Source of the DNA: Lentisphaerota bacterium | GTDB lineage: Bacteria > Verrucomicrobiota > Kiritimatiellia > UBA8416 > VGWI01 | Reading direction: 5' to 3' | NCBI GenBank assembly: GCA_016873655.1 | Contig: VGWI01000001.1 | Coordinates: 3,343-67,342 of the forward strand | Length of the DNA stretch: 64,000 nucleotides | Shown here: piece after piece, positions 32,605-45,514 of the stretch | Numbering within the stretch: position 1 is the first letter of the stretch | How the letters are laid out: each line of letters opens with the position of its first letter | The notes under the pieces: model-generated | Told to the model about the DNA's origin: nothing | The model's database searches: none | Seen by the model: the letters and a program-made list of their open reading frames with translations, nothing else | Program-made: the position numbers and the translations under genes

Positions 32605-33864
32605 ATGCCCCGCTACAAGTACGCGGCGATGGATTCGAAGGGCGGCGAGACGTCCGGCGAGATAGATGCCGAGAGTCAAGCCAAGGCGGTTGCCGCGATC
32701 CGTGCGCGCGGGCTGTTCCCCACGAAGCTGACGCCGACTGCTGCGGGGCCGCGTGCGTCCTCGGGCGCGAAGGGGCTCAAGACAGAGATCCGTCTGCCGC
32801 GTTTTCTGCGCGGCCGAGTTCGAACCAAGCAGCTCATGGTCTTGACCCGCCAGCTGGCGACGCTGGTAGACGCGGGACTGCCGTTGCTGCGAGGGCTCAG
32901 AATCCTGCTCAGGCAGGAGCGTAATCCGACGCTTCGCGAAGCCTTGAGCCAGATCGGCGAGGCCGTTGAGAGTGGAAGCAATTTTTCCGAGGCCCTTGCC
33001 CAGCACCCAAAGATATTCGACAACCTCTTCGTGAACATGGTTCGCGCTGGCGAAGCGGGCGGCGTTCAGGAAGTGGTGCTGCTGCGTCTGGCCGAATTCA
33101 TGGAGAAGGGCGAGCGGATCAAGAACCGCATACGCAGCGCCATGGTCTATCCCGTGGTGGTGCTTGTCGCGGCGGTCGGCATACTGTCATTCCTGCTGAC
33201 CTTTGTCATACCGAAGTTTCAGGAGATATTTGAAGATCTGCTCGGGGACCGCGGGCTGCCTGCCATCACGCAATTCGTGATAGATGTCAGCACCATCGTG
33301 AAAACGAAGGGGTTGTGGGTGGTTGGCGGAATCGCTTTGATCTGGGCTGGGTTCGTGGCTTTCGGGAGGACCCGCCGCGGAAGGCTGATCGTCGACGGGA
33401 TGAAGCTCAAGATTCCGCTGTTCGGCGGGCTGATGACTAAGACATCGGTCGCGAGATTTGCCCGGACCCTCGGGACACTGATGAGCTCGGGTGTGCCGGT
33501 GCTGCAGGCTTTGAACATTGTCCGGGACACGAGCGGCAATTCTGTTGTTGCCAAGGCGATCCAGGACGTCCATGACAGTGTGAAGGAAGGCGACGCCATG
33601 GCCGTGCCGCTCGAGGCGTGCGGTGTGTTTCCGGGCATGGTCGTAAGCATGGTTGATGTCGGTGAAGAGACCGGCGCTTTGCCTGACATGCTTGTGAAGA
33701 TAGCCGACACTTACGAGGACGAGGTCGACACAGCCGTGGAGGGCCTGACCTCGATCATCGAGCCGGTAATGATCGTGTTTCTTGCCGTCATCATCGGGAC
33801 GATAGTCATAGCGATGTTCGTGCCGCTGATTTCCATTATCGGCGAGCTGTCCGGCGGCGCGTGA
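32605..33864 (+). CDS. pilC: type II secretion/type IV pilus inner-membrane platform protein (GspF/PilC family)
   Basis: Two T2SSF-type repeats and 3 TM segments. Conserved GspF segments are LATLVDAGLPLLRGL and GEETGALPDML. RBS GGAAGGGAG lies before ATG 32605. Confidence 0.85.
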   Translation: MPRYKYAAMDSKGGETSGEIDAESQAKAVAAIRARGLFPTKLTPTAAGPRASSGAKGLKTEIRLPRFLRGRVRTKQLMVLTRQLATLVDAGLPLLRGLRILLRQERNPTLREALSQIGEAVESGSNFSEALAQHPKIFDNLFVNMVRAGEAGGVQEVVLLRLAEFMEKGERIKNRIRSAMVYPVVVLVAAVGILSFLLTFVIPKFQEIFEDLLGDRGLPAITQFVIDVSTIVKTKGLWVVGGIALIWAGFVAFGRTRRGRLIVDGMKLKIPLFGGLMTKTSVARFARTLGTLMSSGVPVLQALNIVRDTSGNSVVAKAIQDVHDSVKEGDAMAVPLEACGVFPGMVVSMVDVGEETGALPDMLVKIADTYEDEVDTAVEGLTSIIEPVMIVFLAVIIGTIVIAMFVPLISIIGELSGGA

Positions 33865-34020
33865 TTCGGCCACGCCGCGGTTTCGACAGTCGCATACTCC
33901 AGCATGCCTCCATGTGCACGGCGGTGCACTGTCGGCGCTGTCCGACGATCACGGTTGTCTGGGTGAGTGCCTTCAACCAACTTAACCGCAACGTCTTGTG
34001 TGTTAGTAGGTCTATGGCGC

Positions 34021-34350
34021 ATGCCGTGCTTGGGCCGGTATGGCGAGGTCCAGGAAGAGATGGTCGAGGAGGCCGATGGGGCCGTCACCTCCGGCGCTGT
34101 CGCGACGAACAAGCTCCAGGATCCGTCGGCAACCAATGCTGCTGCCGTGGAATACGATGTTCCCGAGTACGCATATCGTCTGCAGGGCAAGGTGGAGAGG
34201 AAAGAGGGGGCGAAGGTTGGCGGTTCCGCGCCGGGCGGCCCGCAGGAAACGGAACGCAGCGGCGGAGTTGATGTCGGCCGCACCAGACAGACCTGTGGGG
34301 AGATGCCGCTGCCCCCACCTCCGGTTCCTGGCAGGTGCGCAGGTGTTTGA
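34021..34350 (+). CDS. possible small acidic protein, unknown function (weak call)
   Basis: It is the only frame in the 33.9-34.5 kb gap with high GC3 and protein-like composition (EEMVEEADGAVTSGAVATNKLQDP...). There is no convincing RBS; the start is uncertain (34021 or 34060). Confidence 0.2.
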   Translation: MPCLGRYGEVQEEMVEEADGAVTSGAVATNKLQDPSATNAAAVEYDVPEYAYRLQGKVERKEGAKVGGSAPGGPQETERSGGVDVGRTRQTCGEMPLPPPPVPGRCAGV

Positions 34351-34563
34351 GATGGTCATTGCCTCGGTTCCGGCTGTTCGATCTCGCGTTGTGGCGGCAC
34401 CGACGCGTGCGGTGCGACAAGGATTTCCGGTCCGACTGACTCACCATACTTCGATGCCCCCTTTGCTTCGGTAACATCAATTGTGGCGCAATGCGCCTCC
34501 GAAAAAGAGTTTTGATTCCCCCTGCCATTCCGTATAGTGTGCCGACACACTGGGAGGTGGTGC

Positions 34564-35229
34564 ATGACGCGTACAGCTCCTTTTCGCGTGTTTCGGACGG
34601 TGTTGTTTTCGGCCGTGCTTGTGGTTCCCGTGTCGGTGTTCGGGCAGGTTTCGCGAAGCGGGTCCCGCTATGTGGCAGCCTCGTCAGGTGCTGTCGCGGC
34701 CGAAGGCGAGGTCGTCAGGATCCGCAAGTTGCGCGGGTTGAGTGCCCAGGACAAGATCCGCACTCCCAACTATCAGACCGATCTTACGGGCCCGACCAAG
34801 CCCGCCAAGGAGTGGGTGAACATATCGGTCAGCTACGACACTTACCCCGAGATAATCGAAGAGCTCACCTTCCGGTTCTATGTCCTTGCGGGTAAGCGGG
34901 TCGCTGGTTCCCCGGCGCCGGCTTACACTTTCTACCAGGCCAATGTCACTTATCTCGACATTGAGGCTGGACGCGGACATGAGGGCAGCGTTCTCCTGCG
35001 GCCCCCGGCCCTGAAGCTTCACGGTGACCTCATTGCGTTGGCCGTGGAAGTGTATCACAAGGGTGAGGTGGTCGGCCAAGAGAGCGACGGGCCTCGTGAC
35101 TTTGCGGCTGACTGGTGGAAGAAGGTTGACCAGCCCGGCGTCACGGCCAGAGCCGGGTATCTTCTGCCCCGTTCTCAGACACCGTTTGCCTTCGTCAACC
35201 CGGATGACTACGAGTATGCCAGGCCATAG
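34564..35229 (+). CDS. secreted hypothetical protein (Sec signal peptide), unknown function
   Basis: RBS GGGAGGTGG precedes ATG 34564. N-terminal signal peptide MTRTAPFRVFRTVLFSAVLVVPVSVFGQ; no recognisable domain. It is not a class III (prepilin) signal. Confidence 0.6.
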   Translation: MTRTAPFRVFRTVLFSAVLVVPVSVFGQVSRSGSRYVAASSGAVAAEGEVVRIRKLRGLSAQDKIRTPNYQTDLTGPTKPAKEWVNISVSYDTYPEIIEELTFRFYVLAGKRVAGSPAPAYTFYQANVTYLDIEAGRGHEGSVLLRPPALKLHGDLIALAVEVYHKGEVVGQESDGPRDFAADWWKKVDQPGVTARAGYLLPRSQTPFAFVNPDDYEYARP

Positions 35230-35265: not shown

Positions 35266-36924
35266 ATGTTGAGATCCAGACGAATACTTGCTCTTGATAT
35301 CGGGTCCAGCAAGGTGGTGCTGGCCGAGTTTGCCTTGCTCAAGTCGGGCGAGATTCATCTCACGGACTGTGGGATCGGGAGCCTCGGCTTCGAGCCTGAC
35401 ACGGAAGGCGACGTTTCGGCGTACATCGTTTCGGCCATACGCGACGTGATGCGCGCGCGCGGGATGAGACCGGGGCACCTCATGATGACCGTATCCGGTC
35501 ATGCGGTCTTTCCACGTTTTGTGAAGCTTCCGCCAGTGGCGCGCGACAAGGTTCAGCAGATAGTCCGCTACGAGGCCGAGCAGAACGTGCCCTTCCCGAT
35601 AGAGGAAGTCGTCTGGGACCATCAGCTTGTCGGCGACTCGCAGGGCGAGATGAACGTGATTCTTGTGGCGGCGAAGACGGAGAGCATCAAGTCGCTCACG
35701 GACTGTGTTCTTGCCGTTGACATGGAGCCGGAGGTCGTTGACGTCGCACCGATGGCGCTCTACAACGCCGTCAGGTACAACTGCCCGGAAATGACCGGCT
35801 GCACGATGGTGTTGGATATCGGCGCCAGGACCTCGAATCTCATTTTCATAGAATCTTCCCGCATATTCAGCCGCAGTATTCCAGTGGCGGGCAATACGAT
35901 TACGCAGGAGATAGCCAAGGAGCTGGATGTTCCTTTCGCGGAAGCGGAGCGGCTGAAGATCGAGCACGCCGTGGTTGGGCTTGGCGGGGTGTACGCCGGC
36001 CCGGACAACGACACAGCCGATCTTATCTCGAAGATCACGCGCAACGTCGTGACGCGTCTGCATGCCGAGGTGAACCGTTCGATAAACTTCTATCGGGGGC
36101 AGCAGTCAGGGAGTTCTCCCAACAGAGTGCTTCTCACGGGCGGCTCTTCCGTCATACCTCATATGGACACGTTCTTCCGCGAGAAGCTCAAGGTTGACGT
36201 GGAGCACTTCAACCCGCTTGCTCGGGTTCCGGTTGGCGGCAGGCTGGTGCAGCAGGAGGTGGCTCGGGACGCTCATTTGCTGGCGCAGGTTGTTGGGCTT
36301 GGGCTGCGAAAGGCTCTCAAGTGTCCTGTTGAGATCAACCTTATGCCTCCCGACCTCGTCGCGCGCAAACAGATGAGGAAGAGACAGCCTTTCTTTGTTC
36401 TGTCCGCGTTGGGCGCAGCGCTGATTCTGTTGTGCTGGTGGGCGTATACGCGGCAGATGACGGCGGTCTTCAGGACAAGGATCGAGAACATTGAGACGCG
36501 CATAAGCGGAATGGCGAGCGTTGCCGGTCAGCTCGGGCGGATCCAGTCTGAGAAGGCCGTTGTTGACAAGCAGATGGGCTTCTTGCTGTGGCTGGTTGAA
36601 TCACGGGGCAGATGGTTGCAGGTTCTATCGGCGCTGGACGCCTGCCTTCTTGACGGGATGTGGCTTACGTCGGTGAAGCCGGTTGATTCAGGGGACGGGG
36701 CTGTCCGGCGGGTCAAGGTGACAGGGGTGGGTTTTGCGGACAAGTTGAAGGCCGCGGAGCGGGCGGACGCCACTGCGGTTGAGGTGCTGGTGGAGCGCCT
36801 GAAGAAATCGCCGGAGTTCGGGCCGGGTGTCGAGATAAAGCCGGTGCCGTTGCCGGCCATGGGGGCTTCCTCGCGCGATTTCGAGGTAGTCGTGGATCTG
36901 GTTGTGCCGATAGTGGTTCAGTGA
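35266..36924 (+). CDS. type IV pilus assembly PilM-PilN fusion protein
   Basis: N-terminal ~350 aa show the actin-like PilM/FtsA fold pattern (ILALDIGSSKVVLAEF...VLDIGARTSNLIF). They are followed in-frame by a PilN-like segment: INLMPPDL motif, a single TM helix FFVLSALGAALILLCWWAY and a periplasmic domain. Confidence 0.75.
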   Translation: MLRSRRILALDIGSSKVVLAEFALLKSGEIHLTDCGIGSLGFEPDTEGDVSAYIVSAIRDVMRARGMRPGHLMMTVSGHAVFPRFVKLPPVARDKVQQIVRYEAEQNVPFPIEEVVWDHQLVGDSQGEMNVILVAAKTESIKSLTDCVLAVDMEPEVVDVAPMALYNAVRYNCPEMTGCTMVLDIGARTSNLIFIESSRIFSRSIPVAGNTITQEIAKELDVPFAEAERLKIEHAVVGLGGVYAGPDNDTADLISKITRNVVTRLHAEVNRSINFYRGQQSGSSPNRVLLTGGSSVIPHMDTFFREKLKVDVEHFNPLARVPVGGRLVQQEVARDAHLLAQVVGLGLRKALKCPVEINLMPPDLVARKQMRKRQPFFVLSALGAALILLCWWAYTRQMTAVFRTRIENIETRISGMASVAGQLGRIQSEKAVVDKQMGFLLWLVESRGRWLQVLSALDACLLDGMWLTSVKPVDSGDGAVRRVKVTGVGFADKLKAAERADATAVEVLVERLKKSPEFGPGVEIKPVPLPAMGASSRDFEVVVDLVVPIVVQ

Positions 36925-36925
36925 C

Positions 36926-37897
36926 GTGAAGACGCGCAAAGCCATAGTCGTGGGGCTGGTATTCGCCGTGGTGGCGGGGATGCTGATAGGCGCAGCGGTT
37001 CTCCTTGTTCGCGGCACCGGGGAACTGGCCAGGGCGCAGACCGCGCTGGATTCGAAGCGCCGGGAATATGACAGTTACTACGGCAGAAAGCCTTTCCCTT
37101 CGGCTGATAACGTTTCCGTCGAGAAACGGAACCTTGCCGACGAGAAGGGATGGTTGAAGAACATACTGGCGGCTGCGGCGGAGGGAACGCCGGAAGTCCA
37201 GGAGAACACGCCGTCCACGTTCGTGCGGCAGTTGGTGGAAATCAAGGCTCAGTTGAAGGATGCGGCGGCCAGGAGTCGCGTGGCTCTGCAGCCGAGTCCG
37301 GACGCGTTCTCCTTCTCCTTCCAGAGATACTTCGAGGGAAGCGTGTTGCCGGATAAGGATCACGTTGCCATGATGAGTCAGCAACTGGCCATCGTGGAGG
37401 GCTTGTGCCGGCTTCTCTTCAGATGCGGCGTATTGAGCATAGACGCGGTGGCAAGAGACGAGTTCGAATCCGTAAGGGCGACGGTGCAGGGCCCGGGCGA
37501 GGACAGGCCGGGAATACGAGCGCTTGCAGGCGCTTCTCAACGTGACGGCGCTCTTGTCAACAGGATGGGGCCGGTAAGCGACCATCAGTTGTATGCAAGA
37601 ATGTACTTCGGGCTGCGGTTCAAGTCGACCGAGGATACTCTCTGGCGTGTCCTGAACGAGCTTGCCGCGCATGAAGTGTTCTGCGTGGTCAATTCCGTAT
37701 CCGTCGAAAAAGATGGACAGGATATCCGATCTCCGCGCGGTCTGGCAGGCCTGGCCGCGACGGATGCTGACGTGCCGGCTGCCACTGTCGCGCTGCGCGA
37801 GATGTCAAGGCAGGAGAGGCAGGTTACAGGGAAAGAGATCGAGACCCCAGTGGTGGTGACGCTGCACATCAGCGCCTATCTGTTCAAGGTTCCTTGA
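36926..37897 (+). CDS. N-terminally membrane-anchored coiled-coil protein in the PilO position; resembles the Amuc_1100 family
   Basis: GTG start 2 nt after the pilMN stop. One TM helix (IVVGLVFAVVAGMLIGAAVLL), then a coiled coil and an alpha/beta region. The C-terminal pattern PVVVTLHISAYLFKVP and internal segments match my recollection of Akkermansia Amuc_1100; this is unverified. Confidence 0.5.
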   Translation: MKTRKAIVVGLVFAVVAGMLIGAAVLLVRGTGELARAQTALDSKRREYDSYYGRKPFPSADNVSVEKRNLADEKGWLKNILAAAAEGTPEVQENTPSTFVRQLVEIKAQLKDAAARSRVALQPSPDAFSFSFQRYFEGSVLPDKDHVAMMSQQLAIVEGLCRLLFRCGVLSIDAVARDEFESVRATVQGPGEDRPGIRALAGASQRDGALVNRMGPVSDHQLYARMYFGLRFKSTEDTLWRVLNELAAHEVFCVVNSVSVEKDGQDIRSPRGLAGLAATDADVPAATVALREMSRQERQVTGKEIETPVVVTLHISAYLFKVP

Positions 37898-37919
37898 TGC
37901 CGGAAAGGGAGCGGGGAAA

Positions 37920-38945
37920 GTGATTGCCGTTATCAGGAAGAACTACGACAAGGTGATGGCAGCCGTTGTCACGGTAATGCTTCTCGCCTCGCTGGCGTAC
38001 CTGGCGGCACGGGTTTCGAGCATACGCGAGATGGAGAAGGACTTCGACCAGACGATCAGCATGGTTCGGCCAAAGCATCCTGTAGCCCACTCGCTGGATG
38101 CGACGCCGTACGAATCGGCGATGGCGCTTGTCAGGACCCCGTTCGCCATCAACCCGTCTGACTACACGAATTTCTGGATGTTTGTGCCGGCCAGACGCTG
38201 CATATGCGTCGTCTGCCGCCGTCCGATACCGATCGAGTCAAAGGAGTGCACGTTCTGCTTGGAGCCGCAGCCAGAGCCGAAGGAGACGATGGAGGACTAT
38301 GACGGCGACATGGATGGGATGTGGGACGTATGGGAGAGAGAGCACGGGCTCAATCCTTTCGACCCGTCGGATGCGGAAAAGGACAATGACGGGGACAAAT
38401 TCTCGAATGCAGCGGAATTCAGAGGGAAGACGGATCCGAATGAGGCGTTGAGCTACCCGCCGCTGGAGGCCGAACTGTTTTTCGAGAAGGTAAATGTTGA
38501 CCCGTTCAGGCTTCTTTTCAAGAGCCGTATCACGCTGCCTGGCGGCGAGTTCAAGTTCGGCATAAATACCCGCGAGAACGCGAAGACTTACTTCGTAAAG
38601 ATCGGCGACGATGTGGAGGGGTTCAGGGTGCTGTCCCACGAGGAGAGAGTAGAGACCGTCGTCAAGGGCGGCATGCCGAGGCGAGTGGATGTTTCGGTTC
38701 TCACCCTCAAGCGAGGCGACAGGGAAATCGCCCTCGTAAAGGACCGTGATTTCTCGTACGTGGAGTATCTTGTCCACTTCGTGTTTGCTCTGGATGATCT
38801 CAGATTCCAGAAGAGACCGGAGGACGAGTTCAGTCTCAGATCGCATCGCTACAAGGTCATAGGGGTTGACATTGGCCGTAACCGTGTACTAATTAGTCGC
38901 ATGGAGGATGGGGAACGGGTTGAGGTGACGCCCGTATCCGAGTGA
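37920..38945 (+). CDS. membrane-anchored protein with C4 zinc-ribbon and DxDxDG calcium-loop motifs (PilP position)
   Basis: RBS AAAGGGAGCGGGG precedes GTG 37920. TM helix near the N-terminus. C-x2-C-x15-C-x2-C (CICVVCRRPIPIESKECTFC). Acidic segment DPSDAEKDNDGDKFSNAAEFRGKTDPNE. C-terminal beta-rich domain. Confidence 0.45.
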   Translation: MIAVIRKNYDKVMAAVVTVMLLASLAYLAARVSSIREMEKDFDQTISMVRPKHPVAHSLDATPYESAMALVRTPFAINPSDYTNFWMFVPARRCICVVCRRPIPIESKECTFCLEPQPEPKETMEDYDGDMDGMWDVWEREHGLNPFDPSDAEKDNDGDKFSNAAEFRGKTDPNEALSYPPLEAELFFEKVNVDPFRLLFKSRITLPGGEFKFGINTRENAKTYFVKIGDDVEGFRVLSHEERVETVVKGGMPRRVDVSVLTLKRGDREIALVKDRDFSYVEYLVHFVFALDDLRFQKRPEDEFSLRSHRYKVIGVDIGRNRVLISRMEDGERVEVTPVSE

Positions 38946-39041
38946 GGTTGAGCGATCGGCCGGGCCGGGGATGTAGCTCGTGGCTGGTCTCTCTCAGTGT
39001 CCTTTTCGTTGCTTGGAACAACCACAAGGAGTGAACTTCCG

Positions 39042-42000
39042 ATGACTCGGATTGGCAAGGGTTGGCTGCTTGCGGCGGCTGTGGCTATTATGCTTTCGGC
39101 CGTTGGTGCGTTTCGCGCCCAGGACATTGACGAGAACGCCGCCAAGGTCGCGGAAGAGGTTCTGATAGAAGAGATCGTCAACGGGGATCTCGTGGAGTCT
39201 TCTGTCAGAAGAGAGATGGCGTCTCCTTCTCCAGTTGCAGATGCGGATTCTCTGATAGTTGCGGCCACTTCTTCTCCCTCCCCGGCGCCCGCGAAGGCAG
39301 AAGATTCCGTCGAGTTTCTCGCTGAGGCGGCGTTGGGTTCCGCGCCTGTCCTACCAATGGAGGATGAGCCTGTTGTGCTGCCGGAGCCGTTGGCCCCGGT
39401 CGCTCCAATTCGTTCCGGGGCGGTCGTTGTTGCCTCGCAGATGAGTGAAGAGGAGGCGACCGGTCTGGCAGCGGAGGTGGATGCCGAGGAACTGCTGGCC
39501 AAAGTTGACACTCAATCAGTTGTTTCCGCGGGTAGCGGATTGCCGGCGCCGGCGGCAGAGGAGATCGTTCCGGTTCTGGCTCTCGATGATGTCGAGCCGG
39601 TTGCTCCGGTTGAGGAAGAGGTCACTGAACTGGTTGTCGACGAGCCCATCGAAGAGCCTTTTGTCTCCATGGTTCCTTCCGAAGAAGTCCAGGAAGCCCT
39701 TGTTGAAGAACCGTTGGTTCTGATCGAGCCGGTGGTTGGACCGACAGAGCCGGTTATGACCGCCGTGTCCGCCGGGCAGGGGGAAGGTCGGCCGGTTGTT
39801 GAGAAGGTGGATCCAGTTCACGAGGATCTCGATGCTGACCTGCTTGCGATCATGGGGGCTGAAGCAGCCGTAAAGCCCGCGAAGAAAGTCCCGCCCACAG
39901 AATCGGCGGCACCGACAGCGGGCGACGGTAACGGCGTTAGAGTTGGGGTCGTTGAAGACCAGGAAGTGCTGCGTCGCCGGGCTTTGGCCGCCCACGCGCG
40001 TGAACTCCTGAAGCAGGCCGACGATGACCTGGCCAACGGGCGCTACGAGATCGGGATTGTCCGGTACCGCAACGCCATAAGGGGACTTTCGCTGCCGGCC
40101 GACGTGAAGATCAGGAAGCAGGCAGAGCGCGGTCTGGCCGAGTGCTACTACCGTAACTCCCTTTACCTTGAAAAGCAGAACGATCTGAACGCGTCGCTTG
40201 TGGCGGCGAAATCGTCCATGGATGCCGGTCATCCGAAGGGCGAGGCGCAGTTCGTGAAGATCAAGAAGCTGATTGATGAACCGCCTCCGCCGAAACTGGC
40301 GCCGCCGACCGAACGCTGGAATCAGCAGGAGTACAGGGACAAGCAGGCAAAGATCGCCGACCTCATGAAGCGGGGTCGCGAGTATTCGATGGCCGGTGAA
40401 TTTGACAATGCCGCCCAGGACTTCAGGGGCGTGCTTGCGCTTGACCCCCAGAACACGGAAGCCATGCGATTGCTCAAGAAGGTCGAGCAGGTAATGTATG
40501 ACAGGGCTTCGATGGAAGCCGAAGCCACCCGCCAAAGCATGATGCGGGAAGTGCGCGAGGGGTGGAACCCGCGTGACTACAAGTACGCCCAGGAGTCGGC
40601 TGCGGTCATGAAGCCTGGCGATGTGACAAGGCAGCCGCGCGGCGAGACTGTCCGTACGAGGATAATGAAGAAACTGGAGCAGATCACCATCCCAGAGATC
40701 GATTTCAGGCTGGCGAACATCAACGACGTTCTGGAAGTCCTCCAGGATTCGAGCCGGGAGTTTGACAAGAGTGAGACCGATGAGGGCAAGAAGGGCGTCA
40801 ATATCATCCTGAATCTCAGGTCGGGCGCCACAGGAGGGGCAGCAGCTCCATCGCTGGCGCCGATCGGTGACCTGTTTTCTACGACGGCCCCCGCTTCAAC
40901 CGCGAGAGGCTCGGCGGTCCCGGGCAGCGAGGCGGTTCCGCTCATTACCTTCAATGCGCGTTACATCTCTCTGCTCGAGGCGCTCAAGATAGTCACGAAC
41001 GTCGCGAACCTGAAATGGCGCATTGAGGGCAGCGTGGTTATGATCGTTCCCCTGAACGCCCCTGACGGCGAGGTCATCGTTCGCATGTACGATGTTCTCC
41101 CGTCCGTTGAGGAGAAGATTCCCCAGATGCGTGCCGCGCTTGGCGGCGGAGCCGGCGGCAGCGGGTTCCGTTCGATGGAAGCCGCGGGGATGAACATCGA
41201 AGGTGCCGACTGGAAAGAGTTCTTCCAGGAGATGGGTGTTAAGTGGCCGGACGGATCCTCAATCAAGTACGTTCGGGCGATAGGCAAGGTGGTTGTCGCT
41301 AATACAGAAGATAACCTTATGCGGTTCGAGCAGGTTCTGTCGGTGCTCAACGTTGTGCCCAACCAGATTGAGATTGAGGCGCGTTTCGTGGAGGTCAGCC
41401 GTGCCGACGTGTCCGCGCTCGGGTTCGAATGGCTGCTGACTGACAACTGGGAGATGGCGAGCCATCCTGATGATGCGGCGCTCCCGCCGGCCTCCCGTCG
41501 CCGCCTGGTGATGAACGAATCGAACATGACGAAGGGCAACCGTTTTCTCAGCAAGGAGAGCGTCGCCACCGCCGTGGCGGATGACATAATGACCATATCG
41601 TCCGTACTGACCAACCCGGAACTGTCTTTCGTGCTTCATGCCTTGGAACAGCGCGGGTTTGCCGACCTTCTGTCGGCGCCGAAGGTGACTACTCAGGCTG
41701 GTCAGGAGGCAACGATCAAGGTAGTGACGGAGTACATCTATCCGACGGATTTTGAGGTGACTCCGGTTACCGGCACGGCGACGGCCACAGGCGCAACCAC
41801 GATACGCGGTGGCGTTGTGGAGCCTTCGGGGTTTGAGACTCGCGAGGTCGGCGTCATACTGACTGTGCTCCCGGACGTAAGCCCGGAGGGGCGTATGATC
41901 AATCTGACGATGACGCCTGAGGTCGTAAGTGAGCCGGAGTGGAAAGACTATGGATCCATATTCACGGACGATCAGGGCAACGAGACAAGGTTGAGGATGG

Positions 42001-42356
42001 AGCAGCCTTTCTTTTATACGCGGTCAATCGCGACGTCCATATCCATATACAACGGAGCGACCGTTGTGATGGGTGGTATGATGAATGAGGTGCGGCGCGA
42101 TACCGATGACAAAGTGCCGTTCCTCGGCGATATCCCGATAGTCGGGAAGCTGTTCCGCAGTAAGAGCGAGCGGAGCGACAAGCGCAATCTTCTGATCTTC
42201 GTGACGGCCAAACTAGTCACTCCCGACGGTCGGCCGGTCGAGAAGAGCGGGGAAAGCCTTGCCGGGCGGATAGCCGAAGCCGGTCTGGTGCCGGATCTCG
42301 GCAAGTCGTCGGAAACGTCCGCTGCGCCGGGCATGGGCGGCCTGACGTTCCCGTGA
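39042..42356 (+). CDS. pilQ: secretin (PilQ/GspD family) with long acidic low-complexity N-terminal region and TPR-like repeats
   Basis: C-terminal secretin core (VPFLGDIPIVGKLFRSKSERSDKRNLLIFVTAKLV) preceded by secretin-N-like repeats. Residues ~40-300 are E/P/V/A-rich low complexity. TPR-like helices run ~310-500. RBS AAGGAG precedes ATG 39042. Confidence 0.85.
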   Translation: MTRIGKGWLLAAAVAIMLSAVGAFRAQDIDENAAKVAEEVLIEEIVNGDLVESSVRREMASPSPVADADSLIVAATSSPSPAPAKAEDSVEFLAEAALGSAPVLPMEDEPVVLPEPLAPVAPIRSGAVVVASQMSEEEATGLAAEVDAEELLAKVDTQSVVSAGSGLPAPAAEEIVPVLALDDVEPVAPVEEEVTELVVDEPIEEPFVSMVPSEEVQEALVEEPLVLIEPVVGPTEPVMTAVSAGQGEGRPVVEKVDPVHEDLDADLLAIMGAEAAVKPAKKVPPTESAAPTAGDGNGVRVGVVEDQEVLRRRALAAHARELLKQADDDLANGRYEIGIVRYRNAIRGLSLPADVKIRKQAERGLAECYYRNSLYLEKQNDLNASLVAAKSSMDAGHPKGEAQFVKIKKLIDEPPPPKLAPPTERWNQQEYRDKQAKIADLMKRGREYSMAGEFDNAAQDFRGVLALDPQNTEAMRLLKKVEQVMYDRASMEAEATRQSMMREVREGWNPRDYKYAQESAAVMKPGDVTRQPRGETVRTRIMKKLEQITIPEIDFRLANINDVLEVLQDSSREFDKSETDEGKKGVNIILNLRSGATGGAAAPSLAPIGDLFSTTAPASTARGSAVPGSEAVPLITFNARYISLLEALKIVTNVANLKWRIEGSVVMIVPLNAPDGEVIVRMYDVLPSVEEKIPQMRAALGGGAGGSGFRSMEAAGMNIEGADWKEFFQEMGVKWPDGSSIKYVRAIGKVVVANTEDNLMRFEQVLSVLNVVPNQIEIEARFVEVSRADVSALGFEWLLTDNWEMASHPDDAALPPASRRRLVMNESNMTKGNRFLSKESVATAVADDIMTISSVLTNPELSFVLHALEQRGFADLLSAPKVTTQAGQEATIKVVTEYIYPTDFEVTPVTGTATATGATTIRGGVVEPSGFETREVGVILTVLPDVSPEGRMINLTMTPEVVSEPEWKDYGSIFTDDQGNETRLRMEQPFFYTRSIATSISIYNGATVVMGGMMNEVRRDTDDKVPFLGDIPIVGKLFRSKSERSDKRNLLIFVTAKLVTPDGRPVEKSGESLAGRIAEAGLVPDLGKSSETSAAPGMGGLTFP

Positions 42357-42390: not shown

Positions 42391-43269
42391 ATGCAGAGAC
42401 TGCTTCTCGTTGACGGTCACAATGTACTCTACAGGGCTTTCTTCGCCTTCCCGCCTCTCACCACGCGTGCTGGCGTGCACACAAACGCCGTCTTCGGCTT
42501 CGTGAAGATGCTGCGCCAGCTGCTGGACGTGAGGGGCCCGACACATCTCCTTGTTGTGCTGGACGGCGGGGTGCCCGCGGAACGGTCGGGCATGATCGCC
42601 GGGTACAAGGCGAATCGGAAGCCGATGCCAGATGACCTCAGGCCGCAGGTCGGGCTTCTGGAGAAGTATATGGAGGCTTCGGGAACCGCCTGGCTCCGTG
42701 TGCCTGGCGAGGAAGCAGACGACGTGATGGCGTCAGCGGCGGTTCAATGGCATGGAATGTTCCAGGACATCATCCTGGCGTCGTCGGACAAGGATCTTCT
42801 CCAGGTTGTTTGTGACGGGATTTCTGTGGTCCCCGTGACCGGGAAGGCGAACGTGAGCACGGGGCCTTGCGAGGTGAGGGAGAAGACGGGAGTGGTGCCA
42901 GGTCAGATTGTTGACTGGCTCGCGATGGCGGGCGACGCAGCGGATAACGTTCGCGGCATAGACGGAGTCGGGCCGAAGAAGGCGGCGAAGCTGCTGAGCG
43001 AATTCGGCACCGTGGACGGGGTCTATGGCCATATCGAGGAGTTGAAGCCTGGGGTTACAAGAGATGCGATAGTCGCGGCGCGCGACAGAGTCTATGCAAA
43101 CAGGGAAGCCATGCGATTGAGAACGGGCATTTGCCTTGGCCTGGATCCGGCGGACGCTGAAATCAAGCCGCCGGACAGGCGCAGGCTTGTGCCGCTTCTC
43201 GAAGAGCTGGAATTCAATTCGATGGCGGCGGAACTGCGTCAATGCGGGCTCTTCCCGGGCTTTGGCTGA
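42391..43269 (+). CDS. standalone 5'-3' exonuclease (DNA polymerase I N-terminal nuclease domain / FEN-like)
   Basis: LLLVDGHNVLYRAFFA..., metal-binding acidic clusters and H3TH. The ORF stops at 292 aa with no polymerase domain downstream. Confidence 0.8.
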   Translation: MQRLLLVDGHNVLYRAFFAFPPLTTRAGVHTNAVFGFVKMLRQLLDVRGPTHLLVVLDGGVPAERSGMIAGYKANRKPMPDDLRPQVGLLEKYMEASGTAWLRVPGEEADDVMASAAVQWHGMFQDIILASSDKDLLQVVCDGISVVPVTGKANVSTGPCEVREKTGVVPGQIVDWLAMAGDAADNVRGIDGVGPKKAAKLLSEFGTVDGVYGHIEELKPGVTRDAIVAARDRVYANREAMRLRTGICLGLDPADAEIKPPDRRRLVPLLEELEFNSMAAELRQCGLFPGFG

Positions 43270-43451
43270 TGCGGCGACGCTTCTCCGGTAAGATGCAGGA
43301 AGGCGAAAAAAGTGTATTGACGCTTCGCGGGAGGGTGGAATACCATCCGCTGGCACTGTTTTGAGGGTTCCTGATAAGGGCCGGAGTCACCTCCCAACGC
43401 GGATTCACGAATTTCTTGTTCTGCGGTGACTGATTCCATCGCCTGATCCAC

Positions 43452-44048
43452 ATGCTCCGATTAGCCGTCACTGGAGGGATTGCCTGCGGGAAGAGTCTTG
43501 CGGGTTCGATCCTGAATGAGCTGGGGATGCGTGTAGCCGAAGCCGACGACATGGCGCATGACCTGTTGCGGCGAGGCACTGAGACGCACCGGCTGGTTGT
43601 GGAATCGTTTGGTCGGAGCGTGCTGTGGGCTGACGGCGAGGTCGACAGGGCGGCTCTGGGTCGCATGGTCTTTGCCGACCGCAGGCGGCTTTTCAGGCTG
43701 AACGCCATTGTGCATCCCGAAGTAAAGCGGGTCTGGCGCGAATGGCTCTGCAGCGAGGAACAATCCGGCACCGGCGAGGCTGTCGTGGTCGTTCCGTTGC
43801 TCTACGAGGTAGGGGAGGGATCCGGTTGGGACGCGGTGATAGCCGTCACGAGTTCCCGGTCGGTACAGATTGAGAGGATGCTCGGCAGGGGCCTGACTGC
43901 GGTCGAAGCGGAAGCGCGTCTGGGTGCCCAGATGGCGAATCCGGAGAAAGAAGCCCTGGCTGACTACGTGATAAGAAACGACGGTTCCATGGGTCTGCTT
44001 GAGCGGCAGGCTCGCATGGTGGTGGATAGTATTCGGAGAAGAAAGTGA
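43452..44048 (+). CDS. coaE: dephospho-CoA kinase
   Basis: P-loop [12 protein letters not shown] and CoaE family length. Confidence 0.85.
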
Positions 44049-45514
44049 ACATGCCGGACAGAAATCATGGCGGACAGCGGCGGCCGCACCGGGGGCGCCC
44101 CGGCAGGCCGAGACCACACGGTAACCACATGCGCGAGCAGCGCCAATGGGAGAATCCCATGGATGACAGCAGACCCAGAGACGAAGAAGTATTGCCGCCC
44201 CGCGCTGACCAGCCTGAGGGAGATCAGCCTGTGCCGCAGGATGAAACGCGGAAGGGCGGTCCGGCGCTCAGTCTGTACGACCTTCAGGAAAAGACAGTTC
44301 CGGAACTGAATGAAATCGCGGACAGTTTTGGGCTCAAGGATCTCGGAGCGCTTCGTAAGCACGAGCTGATCTTCGAGATACTCAAGGCCAGCGCCCGCGT
44401 TACCGGCGCGATGGTCAGCAAGGGTATCCTCGAGATACTGCCTGACGGGTTTGGTTTTCTAAGGTCCGCCTACAACAACTACCTGCCGTGTCCGGAGGAT
44501 ATCTACGTCTCTCCTTCCCAGATCCGCCGTTTTGCGCTTCGAACCGGCGACCTGGTTGAAGGCGAGATACGCGAGCCGCGCGAGAAGGAGCGGTTTTTCG
44601 CCCTGCTGCGCGTGGACAAGGTGAACGGTGAGAATCCCGACCGGTCGAGGCACAAGGTGCCGTTCGAGAACCTGACCCCATTGTTCCCGAACCGCAGAAT
44701 AGGGCTTGAGAGGGAACCTGACGAGATATCCATGCGCGTTATGGACATCTTCACGCCGATCGGGTTTGGACAGCGCGGCCTGATTGTTGCCGCCCCGCGC
44801 ACAGGAAAGACCGTCCTGCTGCAGAAGATAGCGAACAGCATATCGGCGAACCATCCGGAAGCGCACCTGATAATCCTGCTGATAGATGAGCGCCCGGAGG
44901 AAGTGACCGACATGATGCGCAGCACGAAGGCGCAGGTGTTGAGTTCGACGTTCGACGAAGCCCCGGAGCGTCACGTCCAGGTTGCGGAACTGGTGATCGA
45001 GATGTCCAAACGCATGGTTGAGTGCGGAAAGGACGTTGTCATACTGCTGGACAGCATCACTCGCCTGGCCAGGGCGTACAACACTCTTCAGCCGCACAGC
45101 GGCAAGATCCTTTCCGGTGGTGTCGATGCCAACGCGCTTCACAAGCCGAAACGTTTCTTCGGTGCCGCACGGAACATCGAGAACGGCGGCAGCCTGACGA
45201 TAATAGCCACGGCTCTCGTCGAGACTGGAAGCAGGATGGACGACGTGATCTTTGAAGAGTTCAAGGGCACCGGCAACATGGAACTGTGTCTTGATCGGAC
45301 TCTTGTGGACAAGCGGGTGTTCCCGGCGATAAACATAGAGAAGAGCGGGACACGCAAGGAAGAGCTTCTGCTGCACCCGGATGAGCTGGGGCGTGTGTGG
45401 GTTCTGAGGCGCGCGGTTAACGGCGTACCCGTGGTTGAATCCATGGAGATGATAGTTAACAGGCTCAAGAAGACAAAGAGCAACGCGGAGTTCCTGTTGT
45501 CGATGAAGGAATAG
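44045..45514 (+). CDS. rho: transcription termination factor Rho with basic N-terminal extension
   Basis: RNA-binding domain, Walker A (AAPRTGKT), Q- and R-loops. The ~75-aa N-terminal segment is Arg/Pro/Gly-rich. Confidence 0.9.

Follow-up and report, generated by a model that had tools for sequence, protein, structure and literature searches.

The gene analysed here lies in a stretch of 64,000 nucleotides from a Lentisphaerota bacterium (contig VGWI01000001.1; the whole stretch is called the window) and encodes a protein of 341 amino acids, which is the fourth product of a tightly packed cluster of five genes on the forward strand (Table 1). It is placed between an Amuc_1100-like gene and an Amuc_1098-like secretin gene, downstream of a PilM-like gene. 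The sequence-only reading, i.e. an earlier inspection of this DNA without database searches, had suggested that the protein may be of the Amuc_1099 type, and this assignment is supported by the curated NCBIfam model NF042425 (Amuc_1099_fam), which scores the protein with 76.9 bits (E 2.1e-21) at a cut-off of 50. NCBI's own rule would assign it the name 'Amuc_1099 family pilus-like system protein', hence the family as such is already known. The alignment connects positions 111-311 of the model to residues 137-316 and does not extend from end to end over the 321 model positions. Verrucomicrobiae-type proteins, which are free of Cys and carry a single Ca-type loop, reach 193-246 bits over positions 2-319 of 321, whereas proteins bearing the four-Cys motif described below match partially with 57-83 bits. 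The curated model therefore represents a short form of the family. Judged by its sequence, the window protein is a long form of the Amuc_1099 family, and the behaviour of the model suggests that Amuc_1099 of Akkermansia is itself a short form without first Ca loop and Cys4 knuckle.

The architecture of the protein begins with a single membrane anchor. A Kyte-Doolittle scan of all 341 residues found one hydrophobic segment only (residues ~12-30), which agrees with the one transmembrane helix of the sequence-only reading, and the AlphaFold2 model places this segment inside one long helix (residues 9-48). Conservation was measured over 31 database homologues of 29-55% identity; the closest relative found in a genome, from a Kiritimatiellae metagenome-assembled genome (MAG), shares 42% identity, while the database homologues reach 55%. 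Within the anchor L21 and L28 are conserved in at least 90% of these homologues, and the same holds true for Y9 and D10 just past the GTG start, which is the reason for favouring this start over the internal Met13. The net charge of +2 of the N-terminal tail predicts an N-in topology, and the region past the anchor is probably located in the periplasm. There is no Cys before residue 94 and thus no lipobox, as had been noticed already from the sequence; the N-terminal region contains the 19-residue hydrophobic anchor instead. The length of this hydrophobic core (19 residues) and the conserved Y9-D10 in front make cleavage as a signal peptide less likely. The tail motif Y-D-[KR] (Y9, D10) is conserved directly before the anchor, and it might, as a speculation, dock onto the cytoplasmic PilM-like domain in the way the PilN N-terminus does with PilM. 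The helix and linker that follow the anchor (residues 31-93) form the least confident part of the AlphaFold2 model; P74 and P90 are conserved within this region.

Table 1. Features of the gene cluster and of the long-form Amuc_1099-family protein (positions in the window; pLDDT, predicted local distance difference test; KD19, Kyte-Doolittle hydropathy)
Feature	Position	Strand	Evidence or remark
Amuc_1102-like protein, first gene of the cluster	34537..35229	+	NCBIfam Amuc_1102_rel 39.9 bits, under the cut-off of 55; Pfam PF28178 Amuc_1102 on the identical gene in metagenome contig L083
PilM-domain protein fused to a transmembrane helix and a periplasmic domain (Amuc_1101-like, GspL-like architecture)	35266..36924	+	Pfam PilM_2 2.8e-39; Amuc_1101_fam 497 bits, under the cut-off of 650
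Amuc_1100-like bitopic protein	36926..37897	+	NCBIfam Amuc_1100_fam E 8.8e-22, under the cut-off; Pfam PF28028 Amuc_1100 on the identical gene in L083
Shine-Dalgarno-like GGGAG	37907..37911	+	Read from the sequence; 8 nt 5' of the GTG start
Long-form Amuc_1099-family protein, 341 aa	37920..38945	+	Open reading frame and translation; GTG start, TGA stop
Cytoplasmic tail, residues 1-11 (predicted)	37920..37952	+	Net charge +2, Y9-D10 conserved
Single transmembrane anchor, residues ~12-30	37953..38009	+	Only hydropathy peak, KD19 up to 2.3
Juxtamembrane helix and linker, predicted periplasmic, residues 31-93	38010..38198	+	Model pLDDT 57-80
Cys4 zinc-ribbon-like knuckle, residues 94-113	38199..38258	+	C96-x2-C99-x10-C110-x2-C113 and the extra C94
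Ca-type loop 1, residues 126-139	38295..38336	+	D128-x-D130-x-D132-G133...E139, EF-hand-like 12-residue loop, then helix 136-141
Ca-type loop 2, residues 155-166	38382..38417	+	D155-N-D157-G-D159-K-F-S-N-A-A-E166, then helix 163-168
Long beta-strand, residues 186-205	38475..38534	+	Most conserved C-terminal motif DPFxLxF, F196 and F200 invariant
Beta module 1, residues ~206-274	38535..38741	+	AlphaFold2 domain model
Beta module 2, residues ~275-338	38742..38933	+	AlphaFold2 domain model
Secretin (Amuc_1098-like)	39043..42356	+	Pfam Secretin 2.1e-37; Amuc_1098_fam 421 bits

The first distinguishing feature of the long form is a cluster of Cys residues. All five Cys of the protein are situated at residues 94, 96, 99, 110 and 113, and the permutation probability of finding five Cys within 20 residues is 1.5e-5. 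The sequence-only reading had quoted this string correctly, however, its pattern C-x2-C-x15-C-x2-C contains a miscount, because the two pairs are separated by ten residues. C96, C99, C110 and C113 are each conserved in at least 90% of the homologues. The distribution of the motif was followed in a genome scan with one genome per species, which made use of the second Ca loop as search pattern (D[GN]D[GK]F[STP]Nx[EA]E), so that this loop is present in all loci by construction. The scan returned 80 loci, one of which is an unrelated giant protein with thrombospondin type 3 (TSP3) repeats and was rejected. The other 79 are from MAGs of Kiritimatiellia, Lentisphaerota and Verrucomicrobiota, and all share the gene order Amuc_1102-like, PilM-like, Amuc_1100-like, Amuc_1099-like and secretin. 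The four-Cys knuckle is intact in 60 of these 79 loci, including variants in which the first spacer is longer or CPFxxC occurs; a CxC variant is present in one further locus. In eight loci the shape of the knuckle is kept (PIP...CPF) and Cys 1, 2 and 4 are lost together, while knuckle and first Ca loop are both absent from the ten remaining, Verrucomicrobiae/Chthoniobacterales-type proteins.

The arrangement of two conserved CxxC-type knuckles on short beta-hairpins, which AlphaFold2 places at residues 93-95 and 102-104 (pLDDT 83-86), corresponds to that of a C4 zinc ribbon, and weak but recurring matches to Pfam zinc-ribbon families were found among the 31 members (UPF0547 in 17, DZR in 10, Zn_Ribbon_1 in 3). 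The sequence hence suggests that the Cys4 knuckle binds Zn. Because the knuckle is probably outside the cytoplasm, two structural disulfides represent a serious alternative: the protein and its role would be the same, but the four Cys would be oxidised in the periplasm, akin to the twin-Cys motifs of proteins from the mitochondrial intermembrane space. The knuckle follows the only anchor and lies on the same side as the TSP3 loops, therefore it should be extracytoplasmic, and Cys pairs in extracytoplasmic proteins are usually oxidised. The common loss of Cys 1, 2 and 4 fits disulfide and zinc models alike. The spacing CxxC...CP[FY]C on short hairpins, however, is the classic zinc-ribbon/rubredoxin knuckle, and the recurring matches to UPF0547 and DZR point in the same direction. 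Moreover, many of the hosts are anaerobes (MAGs from rumen, gut and sediment), in which a reducing periplasm appears plausible. On balance we regard disulfides as a real possibility, though not the one we would choose.

The second feature comprises two acidic Ca-type loops on the C-terminal side of the knuckle. Hexamers of the type DxDxD begin at residues 126, 128 and 155, and 17 of the 53 residues of the acidic stretch are D or E. D148, D155 and D157 are invariant among the homologues, and D128, D130, D132, G133, D151 and D159 are conserved in at least 90% of them; the family consensus of the second loop is DxDGDGFxNxEE. Pfam TSP3_bac matches 24 of the 31 family members (best E 5e-13), and residues 128-174 of the window protein are recognised (E 7.6e-5) by the NCBIfam model throspo3_MtsD, which describes the TSP3 region of MtsD from Myxococcus. 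The acidic stretch that the sequence-only reading had compared to EF-hand or TSP3 loops is present as quoted, and the survey of homologues it had proposed found Cys and Asp motifs alike to be conserved. EF-hand proteins were also on top of the matches of PDB sequences to profile positions 131-173, without being significant. An exhaustive profile search gave 1621 matches at E <= 1e-30, which are not to be read as family sizes because they were swamped by giant TSP3 proteins. Among the 146 best matches with retrieved sequences, 72 are such giant proteins, which match at profile positions ~125-190 only and carry 9-46 copies of this segment each. Giant TSP3-repeat proteins are secreted, in keeping with the topology predicted above. 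By sequence the two acidic loops form a pair of bacterial TSP3 / EF-hand-like repeats, and both likely bind Ca2+.

It might be asked whether these sites act as a switch and not as passive structure, i.e. whether Ca2+ occupancy of the loops or the redox/zinc state of the knuckle would change assembly or gating of the machine. PilY1 would offer a parallel, since its Ca-binding site governs pilus extension and retraction. The two canonical 12-residue loops (DxDxDG...E), each followed by a helix as in an EF-hand pair, are strongly conserved, and the lineage-specific dispensability of knuckle and first loop is what one expects of a regulatory add-on. However, no partner or signalling domain is present in the protein, and the best-known TSP3 repeats are structural spacers stabilised by Ca. 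A regulatory function is consequently considered rather improbable. Far less probable still is the assumption of chance motifs in an unremarkable hypothetical protein or of a pilin-like fibre subunit. The sole point in favour is the N-terminal hydrophobic helix, which superficially resembles the alpha-1 helix of pilins. However, the motifs persist in homologues of as little as 29-33% identity and the clustering of Cys is far from random (see above), hence chance is effectively refuted by the conservation data. Likewise, pilin identity was rejected, since a class III signal (G/F-T-L-I-E, Glu5) was found neither in the protein nor in the six frames of the window.

In the AlphaFold2 model the C-terminal half is entirely beta, residues 186-338 forming 14 strands, in agreement with the beta-rich domain expected from the sequence. 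The full-length model has a mean pLDDT of 84.2, while residues 176-341 alone, modelled with an alignment of 24 C-terminal substrings of database proteins, reached a pLDDT of 91.3 and a predicted TM-score of 0.73. By hhalign the two modules of this region are homologues of one another (probability 85%, E 6.3e-6), and in terms of sequence the beta region is a long conserved strand followed by a tandem duplication of modules of ~65 amino acids. Some relatives (P0193, P0209, P0237, P0255 and P0284) carry repetitive beta insertions of the 'LPxGxxI' type with a length of 80-200 residues between the long strand (DPFxLRFK) and module 1, therefore this junction tolerates extra material. The C-terminal end of the window protein also shows a peculiarity. 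Near position 38928 (38925-38945) the window reads GTGACGCCC, where three independent metagenome assemblies (SRR7979709, SRR7979708 and SRR7990334) read GTG-TGCCC. Their protein comprises 351 amino acids and ends with ...VEVCPYPSEVERSAGPGM, while the window protein of 341 amino acids ends with ...VEVTPVSE. The difference is confined to the non-conserved tail past the last strand and could reflect a strain variant or an assembly error.

The position directly upstream of the secretin had led the sequence-only reading to ask for a fold of the PilP type or of the homology region (HR) of GspC in this C-terminal domain, and this expectation was not borne out. A true but highly diverged PilP/GspC homologue, in which one or both modules would be HR/PilP-type domains binding the N0 domain of the secretin, would be consistent with the gene position, which is identical to that of pilP and gspC, and with the bitopic N-in architecture, which resembles GspC. 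Compared by eye, the modules are similar to the HR sequence of GspC in size and in their motif 'Y-x-V-x-x-G-[DE]-x-V ... V-x-[IL] ... G ... [IL]'. Among 18950 NCBIfam models, sub-threshold matches were obtained to three HR-type models, namely XpsN (0.011 for the window protein), pilP_fam (0.011, two members) and GspC_delta (0.031, two members); the XpsN matches fall on module 1 (E 0.011-0.038), and the matches to all three models are scattered over five of 78 members. Furthermore, hhalign pairs module 2 with the whole HR domain, although not significantly. The probability of the hhalign matches between the 78-sequence domain alignment and the GspC alignments was, however, only 0.2-1%. These negatives are weak because of the narrow GspC profile, which was seeded with E. 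coli GspC-alpha and YghF/GspC-beta, both searches giving almost only Escherichia.

In structural comparisons with Foldseek, neither of the two confident models matched a PDB entry at E <= 0.001, and the 50 best PDB matches of each model included neither PilP nor GspC. Module 2 had small Tudor/SH3-like matches of 51-56 columns with a TM-score of ~0.5, which were not significant. When PDB sequences were searched with the protein or with its family and domain profiles, the only matches were non-significant ones to L18, an S-layer protein, ThsA and calmodulin-type EF-hands. Neither PilP nor T2SSC was among the Pfam families listed for the 78 members, the window protein itself has no PilP match in Pfam or NCBIfam, and it has no match to PDZ, the model being all-beta to the C-terminus. 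Taken together, a PilP/GspC-HR fold is not supported by these comparisons, and we consider such homology unlikely, if slightly less so than the regulatory function discussed above. The sequence-only reading had been prepared to regard its match as chance if no PilP-like fold was predicted and the motifs were not conserved; such a fold was indeed not found, but the motifs are conserved. As a side observation, weak Pfam matches recurred in the C-terminal domains, with DUF6406 matching 10 of 78 members (best E 1.6e-4) and Phage_attach, a family of the lambda FII type, 9 of 78. Such matches may be due to the modules having the shape of a small SH3-like barrel and were discarded as clues to identity, being weak and not interpretable.

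The genetic neighbourhood is highly conserved. The secretin is directly 3' of the Amuc_1099-like gene in 62 of the 66 testable loci, which agrees with the PilP-like position noticed from the sequence, and a PilM-like gene is situated upstream in all 66. Four related loci (L049, L056, L018 and L022) differ in this respect: two have the secretin match 2.6-3.0 kb downstream and not adjacent, and the two others have no secretin match in 7.9 kb of downstream sequence. In the window the secretin open reading frame begins mechanically with GTG at 38997, however, the likely start is the ATG at 39043, which has AAGGAG in front of it and opens onto a signal-peptide-like N-terminus. The gene call for the metagenome contig L083, which bears identical genes, agrees with this start and gives 1104 amino acids; depending on the start codon, the gap between both genes amounts to 51-97 nt. 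The secretin carries an N-terminal extension of ~300 residues rich in acidic residues, Pro and Val, and weak TPR matches follow ahead of the secretin core. The assignment of the Amuc_1100-like and Amuc_1102-like neighbours rests on profile hidden Markov models; phmmer did not match these two proteins to their solved Akkermansia counterparts.

Past the secretin, genes for a 5'-3' exonuclease, coaE and rho follow at 42391-45514. In Akkermansiaceae, coaE and rho are found beside the MUL2 loci (PMC13174399), and this repetition of the synteny indicates a neighbourhood conserved across phylum-level distances. On the other side, a gene for a PilC/GspF-type platform protein (T2SSF, 7.7e-66) is located at 32605-33864 directly after rplQ. 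The ~670 bp between this gene and the cluster (33865-34536) contain only Arg-rich, implausible open reading frames and have no Rfam family match. No PilC-like gene was found in the upstream flanks of the 79 related loci, which covered up to 8 kb. Rfam and promoter/terminator scans of the cluster gave nothing informative. A classical type IV prepilin signal (G-F/M-T/S-L-I/V-E) was absent from all six frames of the 64-kb window, and no ATPase of the GspE/PilB type was noticed near the cluster. Hence, fibre subunits and motor should be encoded elsewhere, or the Amuc_1102-like protein represents the subunit.

Based on these data, we slightly favour a model in which the long-form Amuc_1099 protein is the equivalent of GspC or PilP, i.e. 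a connector from the inner membrane to the secretin with a metal-stabilised neck. It would act as the fourth protein of a five-gene pilus-like or secretion-like machine, known from Akkermansia as Amuc_1098-1102 or MUL2, in bacteria of the Planctomycetes-Verrucomicrobia-Chlamydiae (PVC) superphylum. The logic of the cluster would be that of the envelope core of type II secretion systems (T2SS) and type IV pili (T4P), consisting of the PilM-domain fusion, the Amuc_1100-like bitopic protein, the protein under study and the secretin. One N-terminal helix would anchor the latter protein N-in in the inner membrane, and the rest would extend into the periplasm as a helical stalk, the Cys4 knuckle, two Ca2+ loops, the long beta-strand and two beta modules of ~65 residues. 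Between anchor and beta modules, knuckle and Ca loops might form a compact and rigid neck stabilised by metal. The protein could couple the secretin, on its periplasmic face, to the inner-membrane platform made up of the PilM-domain fusion and the Amuc_1100-like protein, and it probably makes contact with the secretin.

Several observations weigh against this connector model. Since Foldseek and hhalign found no similarity to PilP or GspC-HR, it is gene position and architecture that argue for the connector role. Pfam did not detect an N0/STN domain in the N-terminal region of the secretin, where only a weak FecR_C match (E 0.01) was found, so that the classical HR-N0 contact cannot simply be assumed. 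With regard to the neck, a Cys4 zinc site outside the cytoplasm would be unusual and the four Cys could form two disulfides instead. The window protein taken alone is below the reporting level of Pfam TSP3_bac. Finally, the Verrucomicrobiae-type members work without knuckle and first loop, which are therefore not essential for the core role of the family. A more far-reaching version of the coupling hypothesis can be formulated, in which long-form Amuc_1099 would be a PVC-specific secretin coupler whose modules have a fold absent from the PDB and unrelated to PilP/GspC-HR. The Cys4 motif and the EF-hand-like pair would then act as a metal/redox switch of assembly or gating that responds to Zn/thiol state and Ca2+ and has been lost in Akkermansia and relatives. 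We regard this as a long shot, about as doubtful as the simple regulatory function.

The Amuc_1098-1102 (MUL2) cluster is biomedically prominent and includes Amuc_1100. The cluster proteins are abundant in the envelope fraction of A. muciniphila (PMC5332112), and Amuc_1100 of Akkermansia has an alpha-beta-beta fold resembling T4P/T2SS proteins (PMC13119276). The MUL loci of A. muciniphila were reported to mediate mucin transport and processing, and MUL2 was suggested to aid surface attachment (PMC13174399). The gene amuc_1099 itself was still called uncharacterised in 2026 (PMC13174399), and the papers checked mention Amuc_1099 merely as a cluster member or as 'hypothetical/uncharacterized'. 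Our survey finds the same five-gene machine spread across Kiritimatiellia, Lentisphaerota and Verrucomicrobiota. New is the recognition that the long form with Cys4 knuckle and paired Ca loops is the commonest one in the surveyed loci (60 of 79) and has been lost in the Akkermansia-type short form. Also new are the tandem-module anatomy and the finding that a PilP/GspC fold is not detectable despite the PilP/GspC gene position. The advance is incremental and does not concern a new kind of system, but four Cys, two Ca loops and two modules represent concrete testable sites for the coupling of platform and secretin.

Among the known systems, GspC of type II secretion has a similar design, being a bitopic, N-in inner-membrane protein with a periplasmic beta domain, as is predicted here for the window protein. 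In E. coli, gspC is likewise located immediately upstream of the secretin gene gspD, and the PilM fusion protein of the cluster resembles GspL in having a cytoplasmic actin-like domain, a transmembrane helix and a periplasmic domain. The two proteins differ in that no homology to the GspC HR domain (Pfam T2SSC, PF11356) is detectable in the window protein, with hhalign probabilities of at most 1% against a narrow profile. Furthermore, it is without the PDZ domain or coiled coil of GspC, which in turn has neither Cys4 knuckle nor TSP3 loops. With PilP of type IVa pili the protein shares its place in an operon of the pilM-(N)-(O)-P-Q-like type, and the coupling of platform and secretin is the role expected for it. 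PilP, however, is a lipoprotein, whereas the window protein has a transmembrane anchor, no lipobox and no match to the PilP family; the missing lipobox is not odd if the bitopic membrane protein GspC, rather than PilP, is taken for comparison. Both acidic loops match the Ca-binding consensus DxDxDG of bacterial TSP3 repeats (Pfam PF18884), which are known from giant secreted repeat proteins and from MtsD and CglD of Myxococcus. These proteins contain long repeat arrays, while only two repeats are found here, within a machine component. Amuc_1099 of Akkermansia muciniphila (NF042425, Amuc_1098-1102/MUL2) is of the same family as the window protein and shares with it gene position, N-terminal anchor, second TSP3 loop and C-terminal beta region. 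Cys4 knuckle and first Ca loop, ~30-40 extra residues, are presumably present in the window protein only.

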